64,000 nt of DNA from an uncultured Candidatus Saccharibacteria bacterium (GTDB lineage: Bacteria; Patescibacteriota; Minisyncoccia; Phycocordibacterales; UBA2100): NCBI GenBank assembly GCA_964512835.1, contig CAZELA010000001.1, forward strand, positions 489,372 through 553,371. Reading direction: 5' to 3'. This document shows, one piece after another, positions 15,271 to 55,155 of the stretch (positions are counted from its first letter, which is position 1; each line of letters begins with the position of its first letter). A program made the translations under genes and the position numbers. The notes beneath the pieces are model-generated. The model was not told the DNA's origin. It ran no database searches and saw nothing but the letters and a program-made list of their open reading frames with translations.

Positions 15271-15452
15271 ATAGTCGCTAGGAGCGATCTCCTGCGAGAC
15301 AAGAAGCTTCCCGGCCGCGGGAGGCGTGGCGCGGGCCTAAGGAACGGGCAGTACGTGGGTCCAAAAACCACGCGCGAGTTGGCCGCCCGTCGGGCGCGAC
15401 TCCTGAGCTTCGTCCGCCACCACTCTACCCTGTCGCATCCAAAAAATACATA

Positions 15453-15489
15453 TTCTCACATTCTTGCGAATATGAGAATGTTTTATACC
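15453..15489. promoter_or_regulatory. orphan copy of 37-bp quasi-palindromic operator (ArsR-type 13-2-13)
   Basis: acatattctcacattcttgcgaatatgagaatgtttt matches the site upstream of the ArsR gene at 31377..31413 at about 34 of 37 positions. Half-sites are ATTCTCAcATTCt / cGAATaTGAGAAT. Confidence 0.5.
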
Positions 15490-15490
15490 A

Positions 15491-15548
15491 ACAAAACAAA
15501 ACGGCCGCTCGTAATGAGCGGCCGGTCTGCCTAAAGGCGAAAGATCAG
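15491..15548. repeat. 58-bp direct repeat copy 1 (contains an intrinsic terminator for minus-strand genes)
   Basis: acaaaacaaaacggccgctcgtaatgagcggccggtctgcctaaaggcgaaagatcag is identical to 16294..16351. The hairpin cggccgctc-gtaat-gagcggccg is followed on the minus strand by TTTTGTTTTGT. Confidence 0.85.
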
Positions 15549-16286: not shown

Positions 16287-16293
16287 TCAGCTA

Positions 16294-16351
16294 ACAAAAC
16301 AAAACGGCCGCTCGTAATGAGCGGCCGGTCTGCCTAAAGGCGAAAGATCAG
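16294..16351. repeat. 58-bp direct repeat copy 2 (terminator module after the dapD-like gene)
   Basis: Perfect identity with 15491..15548. Confidence 0.85.
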
Positions 16352-27161: not shown

Positions 27162-27362
27162 ATAAATGAGAGGTATGCATAATACATGTTTGCACCCGAG
27201 TTTCTAGATGAAAGATGAAGAACGGATGCCACTAGAAATACGCAAAAAAATACGTATAATCCTGTTCACAGCATTGCTGGGCCCTAGCATCAAGCAAACC
27301 AAGCGAAGAGAACTGTGGTTCTCTTCCGAGCGAGAGCAGATGCCGGGGTCGTGAGGATACAC

Positions 27363-27434
27363 GGCCCTATCGTCTATCGGCTAGGACACGCCCCTCTCAC
27401 GGGCGAAAGCGGGGTTCGATTCCCCGTAGGGTCA
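27363..27434 (+). tRNA. tRNA-Glu (CTC)
   Basis: Manual cloverleaf: 7-bp acceptor stem (one G-U), 5-bp anticodon stem CGCCC/GGGCG, loop CTCTCAC, T-loop TTCGATT; no encoded CCA. Confidence 0.8.
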
Positions 27435-27447
27435 CAAAAACACCAAG

Positions 27448-27480
27448 AAACCTGCACTGCTGCAGGTTTCTGCGGTTTTT
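27448..27480 (+). terminator. tRNA-Glu intrinsic terminator
   Basis: aaacctgca-ctgc-tgcaggttt then ctgcggttttt. The flanking CAAAAAC/GTTTTTG segments can extend the stem toward the tRNA 3' end. Confidence 0.5.
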
Positions 27481-27689
27481 GGGAAGACGGAGGCATGTTT
27501 TGCCAGCAGGCAAAACGGCCGAGTCCGGGGCTGGAAAATTTTCGAGCGACGGCGAGAAAATTATTGTGGCCCACAAGACGCTTCACGCCGATTCTCGTTC
27601 ATAAATCCGATTCTCCGTAGAAGGGCTGGAAAATTTTCGAGCGACGGCGAGAAAATTATTGTGGCCCACAAGACGCTTCACGCCGATTC
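27481..27689. repeat. tRNA-trailer structured repeat element, 1.6 tandem copies (Glu locus)
   Basis: Unit contains hairpin gttttgcc-agca-ggcaaaac and hairpin aattttc-gagcgacggcga-gaaaatt, then gtggcccacaag. A second partial copy lies at 27623..27689. Confidence 0.7.
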
Positions 27690-27875
27690 CCTTTCAAGCA
27701 TCCGAAGCCGAGGCGGGCCGGATGACTTTTCAGCAGAAAAGTACCGCTGGCCGCTTCCCCATTGGCTTACAAATCAGTCAGTGAGTCACGTCGATTCTCC
27801 TTTTAACGAATCCGCTATCAGCACAAAAGAAAACACGGCCCTAGTAGGGCCGTGCATTGTTCTTTGGAGTCCAAA

Positions 27876-31371: not shown

Positions 31372-31376
31372 ACGCA

Positions 31377-31413
31377 CATATTCCCACATTCTTGAGAATA
31401 TGAGAATGTCTTG
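31377..31413. promoter_or_regulatory. 37-bp quasi-palindromic operator immediately upstream of the ArsR-family gene (autoregulatory site)
   Basis: acatattcccacattcttgagaatatgagaatgtctt begins 6 bp from the start codon; 13-2-13 inverted repeat. Confidence 0.55.
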
Positions 31414-40296: not shown

Positions 40297-40340
40297 AGCG
40301 GATATACTAGCAAATTTTCATGTATGTGGGTCATATGCAG

Positions 40341-40606
40341 TTTATTTGTGGGTCACCGATAATTTCCTCGCCGCCGCTCGGAAATTTCTCTGACCACGGC
40401 TCGCCCGTTTTGCGTGCTCGCAAAACATGGCTCCGCCCGTCCACAAACCGAAAAAGTCTGCCGCAGGGCAGTTTTTATTTGTGGGTCACAGATAATTTCC
40501 TCGCCGCCGCTCGGAAATTTCTCTGACCACGGCTCGCCCGTTTTGCGTGCTCGCAAAACATGGCTCCGCCCGTCCACAAACCGAAAAAGTCTGCCGCAGG
40601 GCAGAC
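40341..40606. repeat. tRNA-trailer structured repeat element, 2 tandem copies (Ala-GGC locus)
   Basis: Units at 40341..40471 and 40472..40606 are about 97% identical. Each ends with the terminator hairpin gtctgccgcagggcagac plus a T-run. Confidence 0.8.
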
Positions 40607-40619
40607 TTCTTCGTGTTTG

Positions 40620-40692
40620 TGGACCATACCGGAATCGAACCGGTCACCTCTTCCATGCCATGGAAGCGCTCTACCAAATGAGCTAATGGCCC
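40620..40692 (-). tRNA. tRNA-Ala (GGC)
   Basis: Manual fold: G3:U70 identity pair, anticodon loop ATGGCAT, T-loop TTCGATT. Confidence 0.85.
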
Positions 40693-41352: not shown

Positions 41353-41426
41353 GCACCTTTAGCTCAGTTGGTTAGAGCGTTCGATTCACATTCGAAAGGC
41401 CTCAGGTTCGAATCCTGAAAGGTGCA
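41353..41426 (+). tRNA. tRNA-Val (CAC)
   Basis: Acceptor GCACCTT/AAGGTGC, anticodon loop TTCACAT. Confidence 0.85.
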
Positions 41427-41570
41427 CAGAAAACCTGCCCTGCGGCATGCTTTCCGGCCGGCGCAGGCAGGAGCGCTGTGAGCCCGGCAGGGCGAACCGC
41501 GTGGCGGGGTCGCGAACATTATTGAGCGGCGGCAAGATAATTATTCGTGACCACTCGATGTTTTCCTGCT
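41427..41570. repeat. degenerate copy of the tRNA-trailer element (Val locus, inverted relative to the tRNA)
   Basis: A degenerate terminator cctgccctgcggcat is followed by attattgagcggcggcaagataattatt-cgtgaccactcg-atgttttcc, matching the hairpin2 / tgaccacgg / gttttgc order of the plus-orientation Ala copies. Confidence 0.4.
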
Positions 41571-41757: not shown

Positions 41758-41894
41758 AAAGACTGTACTGTAGTGCGTGTAGACGGGTCGTGCGGCGCTA
41801 CGCGCGCTCGCGCCTCACCCTGCAACTCGACACGAAAGATTCCTGAGGCCCGACAAAAGATCTCATCGATAATGCGGGCTGTAGTATACCGGTA

Positions 41895-41968
41895 GTACGC
41901 ATGGCTGGGGGTCATGTAGACCGGGTTCGATCCCCGGCAGCCCGACCATAATCCTCCGAAACGTACGC
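41895..41968 (+). tRNA. tRNA-Pro (GGG)
   Basis: Near-duplicate of the upstream tRNA-Pro with anticodon stem-loop CATGG-CTGGGGG-TCATG; CCA is encoded. Confidence 0.85.
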
Positions 41969-42132
41969 CGGGAATCTCCGGGTTCGAGTCACGCATCATT
42001 CGCTGCTGCGAATGTGCGCGACCCCGACTCGCGCCGCCGCGCTCCGTCTCTTGCGCCCTTCCCGAGCCAGGGCGCAAGCCCGGCAGCCCGACAATTTGAC
42101 TAACCGCCAATAGTGTGGCTATATAGCGCTCT

Positions 42133-42615
42133 ATGGTTATCGTACCCATATGGATGCGCGTGATTCTCGCCGCCGGCATCTGCTTCGCCTCCGGCGCTAT
42201 TGCCGCGCTGTATATGACCAGTCAGTCGCTTGGCTACTTTGGATCGCTTGATCGTCCCCTCCTGTTTGCAATGCCGATACCGGTCATCTTTTTTGCACTG
42301 GTTGTTACCTACGCAATCATTTCGATCGCATCGGCACTCATGTGGATCCACGATCCGCGCCCGTGGGATTTTCGCGGCTGGGTTCCGTTGTTTTTTACAC
42401 ACCTGCTTGTACAGGTGGGATGGCTCATACTCCTATTCGCATACAACGTCGTATTTGTCGCGATGCTGATGGCCTTCGTACTCGCGACCTATGTTTTTAT
42501 ATTGACGGCAGCGGCGTGGGAGCGCAGCAAGATCGCGTTTTGGCTTTTGCTCGTATATCTCGCATGGACGCTCTACGCGCTCGGCATGAACATCGCCGTC
42601 TGGGGAGTTAACTAG
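42133..42615 (+). CDS. TspO/MBR family membrane protein (second paralog)
   Basis: 160 aa with 5 TM helices; Trp-rich motifs (LMWIHDPRPWDFRGWVPLFF, AWTLYA). Confidence 0.55.
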   Translation: MVIVPIWMRVILAAGICFASGAIAALYMTSQSLGYFGSLDRPLLFAMPIPVIFFALVVTYAIISIASALMWIHDPRPWDFRGWVPLFFTHLLVQVGWLILLFAYNVVFVAMLMAFVLATYVFILTAAAWERSKIAFWLLLVYLAWTLYALGMNIAVWGVN

Positions 42616-42616
42616 C

Positions 42617-42846
42617 ATTGTGGGCCACAAATATTTTAGTCGCCGTCGCGACTAAAATTTTCTGACCACGGCGCGCCCGTCCACAAACCGAAACAGTCTG
42701 CCGCAGGGCAGGTTTTTATTTGTGGGTCACCGATAATTTCCTCGCCGCCGCTCGGAAATTTCTCTGACCACGGCTCGCCCGTTTTGCGTGCTCGCAAAAC
42801 ATGGCTCCGCCCGTCCACAAACCGAAAAAGTCTGCCGCAGGGCAGA
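42617..42846. repeat. tRNA-trailer structured repeat element, 1 degenerate + 1 full copy (Ala-CGC locus)
   Basis: The 42712..42846 copy is about 98% identical to 40472..40606. The 42617..42711 copy keeps the outer motifs but replaces the central hairpin with ttttagtcgc-cgtc-gcgactaaaa. Confidence 0.8.
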
Positions 42847-42860
42847 CTTTTTCGTGTTTG

Positions 42861-42931
42861 TGGACCTATCGAGAATCGAACTCGAGACTGTGCAATGCGA
42901 ATGCACCGGTATACCACTTACCTATAGGCCC
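42861..42931 (-). tRNA. tRNA-Ala (CGC)
   Basis: G3:U70 identity pair, anticodon loop TTCGCAT. Confidence 0.85.
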
Positions 42932-51597: not shown

Positions 51598-52160
51598 AGC
51601 CCAACGACGTTGAAAAATTCGCGCTCAAGGTGACCCGCGGTGTCGGCTCGCCGGTCTCTATCGTTGTTCACTCGATCCTGTTCGTCGTGAGCTTTGTCGT
51701 TTCTGCGGCCGGGTGGATATCTCTGGATCGAATGCTTCTCATATTGACGACCATCGTGTCACTCGAAGCGATCTATCTCGCGATATTCATTCAGATGACG
51801 ATCAACATCCAGAGCAAATCACTCGAGGCGGTTGAAAAAGACATCGACGAGATTCAAAAGGACGTCGAGGAGATCTCCGAAGACGTGGAGGAAATTCAAG
51901 AGGACGTGGAAGAAATTTCCGAGGACGTCGGAGAAATTTCCGAAGATGTTGATGAGATTCAGAAAGATGTCGATGAACTCCAGGAGGATGTGGAAGAAAT
52001 TTCCGAGGACGTGGAAGAACTCTCCGAAGAGGATGCCGCGGCCATTCACGAGGAAGCGCAAGAAGATGCCCGAAAGGCCGAACAGAAGCGCACGCTCGAG
52101 ACAATCCAAACCGACCTACGGAAACTCATGGAAGATATCGCAAAGCTCCAAAACAAATAA
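51591..52160 (+). CDS. DUF1003 membrane protein with acidic heptad-repeat coiled-coil tail
   Basis: Two N-terminal TM helices (SIVVHSILFVVSFVV...TIVSLEAIYLAIFIQM) are followed by nine EDVEEIS-type heptads. Confidence 0.55.
   Translation: MAQPNDVEKFALKVTRGVGSPVSIVVHSILFVVSFVVSAAGWISLDRMLLILTTIVSLEAIYLAIFIQMTINIQSKSLEAVEKDIDEIQKDVEEISEDVEEIQEDVEEISEDVGEISEDVDEIQKDVDELQEDVEEISEDVEELSEEDAAAIHEEAQEDARKAEQKRTLETIQTDLRKLMEDIAKLQNK
51840..52028 (+). repeat. intragenic tandem repeat, 9 x 21 bp
   Basis: Units gacgtggaagaaatttccgag and variants encode DVEEISE heptads. Confidence 0.8.
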
Positions 52161-54650: not shown

Positions 54651-54750
54651 ATTATTCCCCGCGAACACGCTTCTGTCGGTTCATCTCGTCAAACTTCTTC
54701 TTTGACGCAGCCTTTGCTGCAGGCGTATGATTCTCGGGTTTAATTTCCCA
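54651..54750 (-). pseudogene. duplicated 3' fragment of the gene at 54817..55155
   Basis: About 85 bp at 54665..54748 are about 93% identical to 54830..54915. The fragment translates to WEIKPENHTPAAKAASKKKFDEMNRQKRVRGE* but lacks the upstream ORF. Confidence 0.5.
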
Positions 54751-54816: not shown

Positions 54817-55155
54817 CTATTCACTTCGCAAACGTTTCTGTCTGTTCATCTCGTCAAACTTCTTTTTTGATGCAGCCTTTGCTGCAGGCGTATGATTCTC
54901 GGGTTTAATTTCCCACCAAAACTTCTTCCCGAAGTTTGCAGAGTCGTCGCAGACCTTCTTTAAATAGTAGAGATCTTTGGTCGGAATCTGCTGCAAAAGC
55001 TTTCCCATGCGACCCATCGAGATCGGCGGTAGGCCGTCGGGCACCCGCGTTTTGTTGAGCTCCTGACAGAAATAACGCATCAGTTCACCTCGCTCCGTCT
55101 CATTGGTCTTTCGCTCCTGAAAATTGAGCTGAATGCCGATATGCTTCATGCGCAC
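54817..55155 (-). CDS. hypothetical basic protein
   Basis: 112 aa; the C-terminal FWWEIKPENHTPAAKAASKKKFDEMNRQKRLRSE is Lys-rich. Confidence 0.45.
   Translation of the reverse strand: MRMKHIGIQLNFQERKTNETERGELMRYFCQELNKTRVPDGLPPISMGRMGKLLQQIPTKDLYYLKKVCDDSANFGKKFWWEIKPENHTPAAKAASKKKFDEMNRQKRLRSE

Follow-up and report, generated by a model that had tools for sequence, protein, structure and literature searches.

A covarying three-way junction at gene 3' ends of Patescibacteria, possibly the folded strand of a miniature integrative element

In the window, the whole 64,000-nt stretch of Candidatus Saccharibacteria DNA analyzed here, the trailer of a tRNA-Glu gene contains two hairpins that return behind tRNA-Ala genes with altered bases. 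This raises the question whether the pairing itself is conserved, on which strand, and what kind of element the hairpins belong to. The initial annotation had proposed that compensatory changes maintain both hairpins between the Glu and Ala copies. All sequences quoted in it are present in the window, and both hairpins and both changes are as described: the inner pair of hairpin 1 is C:G in the Glu copy and G:C in the Ala copies, and one pair of hairpin 2 is U:A in the former and C:G in the latter, as read directly from the DNA. The hairpins are located as follows.

27497-27516, plus strand: hairpin 1 of the Glu copy, GTTTTGCC-AGCA-GGCAAAAC
27537-27562, plus strand: hairpin 2 of the Glu copy, AATTTTC-GAGCGACGGCGA-GAAAATT, which recurs at 27632-27657
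Within 40339-40597 and 42713-42838, minus strand, read in tRNA sense: hairpin 1 of the Ala copies, GTTTTGCG-AGCA-CGCAAAAC
Within 40339-40597 and 42713-42838, minus strand, read in tRNA sense: hairpin 2 of the Ala copies, AATTTCC-GAGCGGCGGCGA-GGAAATT

A different perfect hairpin had been assigned to a degenerate Ala-CGC copy, and it is found there as TTTTAGTCGC-CGTC-GCGACTAAAA on the plus strand or UUUUAGUCGC-GACG-GCGACUAAAA in tRNA sense. A further copy behind tRNA-Val (41440-41564), absent from the initial annotation, shows a third version of the stems, GCCC-GGCA-GGGC and AUUAU-loop-AUAAU. The three Ala copies of the window are 99-100% identical. Within the window alone, covariation rests on two to three variants only, a weakness that the annotation itself had flagged.

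The complete element is a three-way junction of about 125 nt on the tRNA-sense strand, with the arms P1, P2 (containing hairpin 1), and P3 (containing hairpin 2). P1 reads TTTGTGG/CCACAAA in the Ala copies, and the junction sequence is GAAAG in most family members. P2 starts with a G-N-C/G-N'-C base, continues through an internal loop GGA/GA and ends in hairpin 1 with its AGCA loop, whereas P3 is formed by GGGGUCGCGG/CCGUGACC and encloses hairpin 2 with its 12-nt loop. Single sequences form this same junction when folded on their own, the Glu copy with -42.0 kcal/mol in the sense direction (z = -4.7) and -32.3 kcal/mol on the opposite strand, the Ala copy with -51.4 kcal/mol (z = -6.0) and -39.7 kcal/mol, respectively. 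A mapping of the junction onto the hammerhead was rejected, as CUGANGA is absent.

A covariance model built from the family located eight copies in the window, adjoining five of the six tRNA genes, with model E-values of 1e-24 to 1e-34 for window copies. A short hairpin, hp0, precedes the model start, and the 5' strand of P1 is referred to below as the guide.

27363-27435, plus strand: tRNA-Glu(CUC), the gene preceding the Glu element (ARAGORN, Rfam tRNA)
27446-27471, plus strand: hp0 of the Glu unit, AGAAACCTGCA-CTGC-TGCAGGTTTCT, with a variable stem and the family CUGC loop, terminator-like
27459-27583, plus strand: Glu unit 1, full, in the tRNA-Glu trailer (covariance model 98.4 bits, E 7e-30)
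27476-27483, plus strand: P1 5' strand (guide) of Glu unit 1, TTTTTGGG
27497-27516, 27537-27562 and 27544-27555, plus strand: P2/hairpin 1, P3/hairpin 2 and the loop of Glu unit 1
27566-27571 and 27571-27577, plus strand: end of Glu unit 1, GTGGCC, and P1 3' strand, CCACAAG
27623-27667, plus strand: Glu unit 2, partial, P3 and hairpin 2 only (model positions 69-113, 42.7 bits; 83-nt direct repeat)
27715-27752, plus strand: Glu unit 3, a weak reduced-type remnant with an AGCA-loop hairpin (11.9 bits, E 9e-4, filters off)
40472-40597, minus strand: Ala-GGC unit 1, full, adjoining tRNA-Ala(GGC) at 40619-40692 (110.9 bits, E 6e-34)
40339-40464, minus strand: Ala-GGC unit 2, full, in tandem at 133-nt spacing (106.2 bits)
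41440-41564, plus strand: Val unit, full, after tRNA-Val(CAC) at 41353-41427 (80.5 bits, E 5e-24)
41987-42051, minus strand: reduced-type copy with short P2 and AGCA-capped hairpin 2, in the tRNA-Pro(GGG) trailer, opposite orientation (36.7 bits, E 1e-9)
42713-42838, minus strand: Ala-CGC unit 1, full, adjoining tRNA-Ala(CGC) at 42860-42931 (106.3 bits)
42611-42704, minus strand: Ala-CGC unit 2, degenerate, 32 model positions replaced by 1 nt (52.3 bits)

The last of these is the degenerate copy mentioned above. Its whole P2 arm is deleted, and the loop of hairpin 2 has turned into the perfect stem, with the GC-GACG-GC center of the usual 12-nt loop retained.

Members outside the window were gathered with a pattern of the hairpin 2 loop and the 3' tail, taking one genome per species. 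At least 118 genome stretches match it, nearly all of them from Patescibacteria, in a sample biased toward members with the 12-nt loop, so that family breadth and class shares are uncertain accordingly. The source labels, nearly all of metagenome-assembled genomes, comprise Paceibacterota, Kaiser-, Nomura-, Lloyd-, Yonath-, Vogel- and Zambryskiibacteria, Minisyncoccia, "Patescibacteria group" and "uncultured Candidatus Saccharibacteria". Three loci (L002, L040 and L084) are chance pattern matches within a Bacillota coding sequence. The covariance model yielded 149 matches in the first 100 loci, with up to six per 8 kb and E-values reaching 1e-37. It also recovered reduced members, in which AGCA takes the place of the 12-nt loop and P2 is capped by GGCG or UGGC. 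A search of the window and 28 loci against Rfam 15, at gathering and permissive thresholds, returned only tRNAs and no match on the element even at E <= 10. Scanning IMG/VR with the motif gave zero matches; thus, the element is not a phage attP in that collection. A full-text literature search found nothing on this element, the nearest work being on group I introns in the anticodon loop of tRNAs from Patescibacteria, an unrelated phenomenon.

Covariation was assessed in an alignment of 83 copies from about 80 genomes with 42 modeled pairs. Standard pairs occupy 87.3% of the cells, compared with 70.3 +/- 0.5% after shuffling (0/500) and 36-46% when the structure was slid by one to three columns. 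Cells in which both partners had changed numbered 663, against 240 +/- 16 in the shuffled alignments (0/500) and 127-207 with the slid structure. Such double changes occur at 30 of the 42 pairs, and all helices covary. The N:N' pair at the base of P2 is G:C in 32 copies, C:G in 26, A:U in 19 and U:A in two, and every position of hairpins 1 and 2 shows three to six pair types. The 12-nt loop and the 3' tail are set by the collecting pattern, so that the constancy of those columns is partly built in; variation was unrestricted in P1, in P2, and at the N positions of hairpin 2. The proposal that secondary structure is under selection, with pairing kept as the sequence drifts, thus holds well past the variants of the window. 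Chance similarity, or a local duplication of two variants without any structural constraint, would agree with the two to three variants and the near-identical Ala copies of the window, but the covariation persists in 83-137 independent copies from more than 100 genomes, model E-values go down to 1e-37, and the shuffle and slide controls lack the signal. We regard this explanation as hardly credible. A kissing interaction between the CUGC loop and the AGCA(G) loop was also considered and dropped, as the loop variants do not covary convincingly.

The initial annotation had left open whether selection acts on RNA or on DNA hairpins. G:U and A:C cells distinguish the two strands of a stem, and their ratio was 109:0 in P3, 21:0 in hairpin 2, 36:20 in P2, and 91:47 in P1; one G.U pair of P3 is kept in 78 of the 83 copies. 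The excess of G:U over A:C on the gene sense indicates that the folded form is the gene-sense single strand. This strand is either RNA or folded single-stranded DNA. The present data fit both equally, and they do not fit a symmetric duplex site.

The position of the element relative to genes was then compared among loci. It always lies 3' of a gene and in the same orientation, usually a tRNA and sometimes topA or an xerC/D-like gene. A same-strand tRNA was found less than 400 nt upstream in 87 of 125 motif matches, mostly at 95-145 nt and covering 33 isoacceptors among the matches listed, and in 111 of 137 model matches. Directly after the conserved end of the element, GTGAC|C, a second copy of the 3' part of the upstream gene follows. 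In the following, the gene end upstream of the core is called copy A and the one downstream copy B. In class A (for example L005, L006, L007, L015, L030, L055 and L097) the repeat runs from C56/G57 of the tRNA T-loop to the acceptor end, sometimes including CCA and up to 24 nt of trailer. In class B, to which the Ala, Glu, and Val copies of the window belong, only the last few tRNA bases and the trailer are repeated, for example CCACAAA. Class C consists of 12 loci in which the C terminus of topA, ...KTIPERCS..HNPHK..*, is repeated after an in-frame TGA supplied by GTGACC. At one locus the last eight codons of an xerC/D-like gene are repeated, and at L108 the last three codons of an unidentified gene. 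The repeats are 7 to >70 nt long and often non-identical. The left flank of the target (G-N-N before C at position 0) weakly resembles the element end GTGAC.

Over 6-11 nt, the guide is reverse complementary to the beginning of the repeated segment, and in class B the complementarity widens to a palindrome of 20-25 bp that runs from the tRNA 3' end through hp0 and back. The hp0 has a CUGC tetraloop in at least 39 of 137 members and usually a 9-bp stem, 11-14 nt before the model start. With G:U counted, 330 of 450 guide positions (~73%) can pair with copy A and equally many with copy B; Watson-Crick pairs are commoner with copy A and wobble pairs with copy B. This is the pattern expected if the guide and copy A travel together and copy B is merely recognized. 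The initial annotation had overlooked that both hairpins belong, as arms, to a larger fold, which is closed by a helix derived from the target. A reading of class A as a tRNA-like minihelix was rejected, since it is the CCA end itself with which the upstream complement pairs, and since neither class B nor class C is tRNA-shaped. Mimicry of RNase P or RNase Z guide sequences was likewise set aside as speculation: the geometry can be drawn, yet none of the defining features fits.

An exact complement of the T-loop/T-stem or 3' end of the cognate tRNA, next to hp0 and followed by a conserved scaffold, would also suit the gene of a trans-acting guide RNA that brings a host enzyme, be it a nuclease, a recombinase, or a modification enzyme, to that tRNA (at its T-arm or 3' end) or to matching DNA. 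However, P1 or the long palindrome with copy A normally keeps the guide sequestered, guides of 6 nt provide low specificity, those of topA and xerC/D follow no obvious RNA-targeting logic, and no partner gene recurs among the open reading frames of the 118 loci. Such a function therefore seems unlikely.

The direction of the duplication was read from close relatives of the L077 TopA, which share the gene order dprA-topA-NUDIX-relA/spoT. In L132, L129, L077, and L032 the gap between topA and the NUDIX gene is ~300 nt and contains the element. In L131, with a TopA 96% identical to that of L077, the gap is 71 nt and the site is empty. From the K-T-I codons onward, L131 is colinear with copy B of L132 and its downstream flank, with 124 of 150 positions identical including the terminator and the NUDIX start, whereas copy A matches L131 only up to its stop codon and is then followed by hp0 and core. 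The colinearity shows that the insert consists of copy A, hp0, guide, and core, and that copy B is the displaced native end. In L132 the insert is 204 nt long and has no open reading frame; its core ends in ...TTCGTGACC and copy A, which differs from copy B, starts with AAAACCATACC. Insertion direction is thereby shown at topA, from one empty site, and is predicted to be the same at tRNA loci. Alternatively, the empty site of L131 could reflect precise secondary loss.

Copies A and B of topA differ at 72 codons synonymously and at 26 non-synonymously among 180 codons from eight genomes. The predominance of synonymous differences suggests that the copies diverged while both were coding, in different genomes. 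The encoding of CCA also differs between copies A and B (L083, L111, L006), and the TopA tails of near-identical proteins swap as cassettes between a long "native" and a short "element-borne" type. A diversity-generating retroelement with variable and template repeats does not account for these differences, which are of all kinds, not adenine-specific and mostly synonymous, and no reverse transcriptase recurs. Copy B decays in tRNA loci through 1-nt deletions and acceptor mismatches (L020, L042, L093, L087, L012), and in topA through a frameshift in L129 and truncations in L069, L100, and L021.

In 8 of 12 genomes, copy B of topA is nevertheless in frame and its differences are mainly synonymous, as would be expected of an intron-like element that is removed at the RNA level between direct repeats, joining the gene to copy B and leaving copy A as a spare exon. 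Both copies offer the guide a pairing partner at their start, and the joint is placed at a helix junction, like the splice sites of ribozymes. Against this stand the decay of copy B in tRNA loci and topA, the completeness of the upstream gene, which is thus independent of splicing, and the lack of any Rfam intron or ribozyme match; an intact copy B is explained by recent displacement of the native end. We consider removal as an intron quite unlikely.

Further signs of turnover are tandem arrays (Ala-GGC in the window, L097, L027, L019), in which full and reduced types are mixed, nested elements (L047, L049, L090), and partial and degenerate copies, second and third units being in decay. The idea that the newest copy lies nearest the gene was abandoned, as proximal copies are often of the reduced type. 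Copies diverge as much within a genome as between genomes (0.69 in both comparisons), which argues against a recent burst; copies at the same isoacceptor are slightly closer (0.71 vs 0.68, p = 0.001).

Old and divergent copies within a genome are unlike recent proliferation and would also fit long-lived, individually selected RNA modules. A possible, though rather improbable, alternative is hence a host-beneficial cis-acting module in tRNA and mRNA 3' trailers, with a role in processing, termination, stability, or protein binding and with the duplications as historical by-products. The element is co-oriented with the upstream gene and, at the Glu locus, lies inside a probable transcription unit between a promoter-like site at 27233-27260 and the only strong terminator at 27834-27855. 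In the window copies, hp0 has a terminator-like score on either strand; in topA and class A loci it has no T-run. Invariant loops, compensatory changes that keep the stems in every copy, G:U pairs on the sense strand, and copies within one genome that are old and divergent yet intact are all in line with a cis-acting role. Such a role does not account, however, for the replacement gene end, the guide complementary to the target, and the displaced native end that come with every copy, nor for the empty site in the relative with 96% identity. Second and third copies decay, elements insert into one another, and the targets (tRNA T-loop, acceptor end, topA, xerC/D) are unrelated.

The explanation that we prefer, with belief and doubt about evenly balanced, is that the element is a miniature, protein-less, non-autonomous integrative mobile element of Patescibacteria, and we infer that its folded strand is the recombination or recognition module. 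The mobile unit of ~200 nt comprises, in this order, copy A as a replacement 3' end, hp0, the 6-11 nt guide, and the conserved core. It is located within the 3' part of a conserved gene, at the T-loop or the last acceptor-end bases of a tRNA or at the last codons of topA or an xerC/D-like gene, and the gene stays intact, with copy A as its new end. Copy B, the native end, is displaced downstream of the core and decays. On the gene-sense strand, the guide pairs with the first bases past the joint to form P1, which abuts P3, so that the joint GTGAC|C lies on the continuous strand across the three-way junction at the P3/P1 boundary.

Within this integrative reading, folded single-stranded DNA used by a host recombinase is slightly favored over an RNA form, as it would require no reverse transcriptase and the target flank weakly resembles GTGAC. 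P3 and P1 would then make up a duplex that spans the joint and has an unbroken top strand, as in attC and the CTX phage. An RNA form would instead guide or catalyze the joining, and its fixation in DNA would require a reverse transcriptase. The invariant loops and the conserved G.U pair fit an RNA well; three loops and a G.U pair that do not vary are more reminiscent of a functional RNA or ribonucleoprotein than of a recombination site. More tentatively, and with rather low probability, the fold could be an RNA that directs or even catalyzes a putative insertion at the guide-paired site, that is, a guide-programmed mobile RNA, protein-less or dependent on host enzymes, which carries a spare gene end and whose excised circle of ~200 nt would have the guide paired to its own target copy. 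Counted against mobility in general is that no mover enzyme was identified and no free or circular form was seen. Among 2,783 open reading frames from the 118 loci listed there is no recurrent partner enzyme, only housekeeping genes such as LepA and TopA.

Several known systems share parts of this arrangement. P4-type islands in tRNA genes, and e14 and phage 21 in icd, integrate at gene 3' ends and carry a replacement end. Like them, the element targets the 3' part of a conserved gene, including T-loop and acceptor-end sublocations, restores the gene with an element-borne synonymous copy, displaces the native end as a direct repeat, and forms tandem arrays. Unlike them, it measures ~200 nt rather than kilobases, has no integrase or other gene, carries the complement of its own target, and its joint adjoins a strand-specific, covarying three-way junction instead of arm-type protein sites. 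The only recombinase seen near the element is the xerC/D-like gene, itself a target.

Folded single-strand sites of tyrosine recombinases are found in integron attC and in the attP of CTX phage, an integrative element that exploits host XerCD (IMEX). They resemble the element in the conservation of structure over sequence, a single active strand, location at gene 3' ends, arrays, and independence from an enzyme of their own, and in both cases folding builds a duplex across the joint, in the element from P3 plus P1. However, attC is a single imperfect hairpin with R and L boxes that resides in integrons, and CTX targets dif, whereas the element has three arms and invariant loops and targets tRNA, topA, and xerC/D. 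No R''/L''-L'/R' boxes with GTTRRRY were found in the element consensus, and neither an integron integrase nor a relation to dif was seen.

The second option of the initial annotation, mobilization of the REP type, survives in its first half: mobility is supported by target duplications, the empty site, and tandem and decayed copies, but a REP/RAYT type is not. IS200/IS605 elements use 4-nt guides and a fixed tetranucleotide, make no target duplication, and have TnpA/RAYT genes in the genome neighborhood. One-strand hairpins, internal guide pairing near the cleavage site, and non-autonomous derivatives are common to IS200/IS605, REP/RAYT, and the element, whose guide of 6-11 nt and duplicated target nevertheless set it apart. 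No RAYT (TnpA-like Y1), transposase, or reverse transcriptase recurs among the 2,783 open reading frames of the 118 loci. A REP or BIME is an imperfect palindrome of 20-40 nt, and the unit found here is a 125-nt three-way junction with 42 modeled pairs. Repeats of the REP/BIME type, or classical MITEs, mobilized by a RAYT or IS transposase would likewise be multi-copy, intergenic, hairpin-rich, and arranged in tandem, and the ends of the window copies (TTTGTGG...CCACAAA) resemble short inverted repeats. These "inverted repeats" are, however, target-derived and different at every target, and the duplication of 7 to >70 nt is heterologous rather than a fixed short target-site duplication. With the invariant loops of the core and no recurring transposase or RAYT gene at the 118 loci, an origin as such a repeat is highly improbable.

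Guide-bearing mobile RNAs are known from group I and II introns and the IS110 bridge RNA. As in these, an element-encoded sequence pairs with the target at the insertion point, the folded core is conserved, and retargeting would accompany a change of the guide. The present element differs in that its guide pairs downstream of the joint, its core of ~100 nt matches no intron in Rfam, a reverse transcriptase, maturase, or DEDD recombinase is absent, and the gene is not dependent on the element being removed. Integrative elements that target and replace gene 3' ends are known, whereas no counterpart was found for the small size, the lack of genes, the guide complementary to the target, and the covarying three-way junction whose loops are invariant.

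If the integrative reading is true, the family would be an undescribed and very widespread group of structured elements in a large, poorly understood bacterial radiation, in which the 3' ends of essential genes (tRNAs, topA, xerC/D) are swapped by a gene-less passenger of 200 nt. It would offer a system for studying how a folded strand and a short complementary guide specify an integration site, and if the guide sets the target, a natural programmable inserter. The repeats also break metagenome contigs at tRNA loci: in exact-protein look-ups for the window loci, contigs end within repeats, and L121 represents a deletion or an assembly chimera. Annotation pipelines may misread the tRNA 3' pseudo-fragments and mosaic protein C termini that the element creates. 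The reduced-type copy at 41987-42051 is flanked by T-arm and 3'-end fragments of tRNA-Pro, and in a sister genome (L010) the core of one unit has been lost between two TTTGTG repeats.

In the window, at 41758-42110, the own 3' end of each of the two tRNA-Pro genes is duplicated 100-150 nt downstream of the gene, giving the following copies.

Near 41846, tRNA-Pro 3'-end copy, CCCGACAAAAG
Near 42077, tRNA-Pro 3'-end copy, GGCAGCCCGACAA

The trailer of the second tRNA-Pro gene carries an element of the reduced type in inverted orientation, fused to a 5' fragment of the T-arm. By this arrangement, the T-loop can be entered by the element in either orientation.

Additional hairpins were observed at several loci outside the window. 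At four of the tRNA loci where the repeat runs from T-loop C56/G57 to the acceptor end (L046, L052, L094, and L016), a second long palindrome is found in addition to hp0, the hairpin between the replacement 3' end and the guide; in it, the 3' end of the tRNA, together with its CCA and trailer, pairs with a complement located 3' of a terminator-like hairpin. At L018, L073, L099, L066, and L081, an optional additional hairpin, GAAAGCGGUAAUCCGCG, lies between the GTGACC core end and copy B, the displaced native end, by which the three-way junction becomes four-way. Around the motif at L047, L049, L090, L031, and L106, elements are also nested within other elements: a full copy is interrupted between its P2 and P3 arms by a reduced-type copy, which lies 3' of ...CGAGGCGGG. 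In the tandem arrays L001, L107, L076, L086, and L019, full and reduced types frequently alternate, and the two types have two tetraloops (AGCA and G-R-C-G) in common, with the arms swapped.

Among metagenome contigs of the window's species (L119-L128), contig ends fall exactly within trailer repeats. On one of these, L121, the tRNA-Ala(CGC) unit directly abuts the TMEM175 gene, and the 2.7 kb between them, with four tRNAs and two genes, is missing; the junction reflects a deletion mediated by the repeats or, alternatively, a chimeric assembly.

The TopA proteins of Paceibacteria (P0001-P0060) exchange their final ~20 residues among a few cassette types, the rest of the proteins being 85-96% identical. 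The residue immediately before GTKTIPERCS is hypervariable (E/T/L/V/I/D/H/N/A/Q).

The window contains further repeats. A 37-nt palindromic repeat, ACATATTCTCACATTCTTGCGAATATGAGAATGT, is present at 15448-15484 and 31376-31412 and looks like an operator. A 59-nt exact repeat, which includes a GC-rich hairpin, occupies 15490-15548 and 16293-16351; the exact repeat and the palindromic one are families D8 and D11. A 98-nt direct repeat of 91% identity is found at 54653-54750 and 54818-54915 with a spacing of 165 nt (family D5). Within a coding region, at 51817-52030, a 21-nt unit of seven codons is repeated in tandem at least seven times (family D1), and its product consists of acidic heptads rich in E/D.
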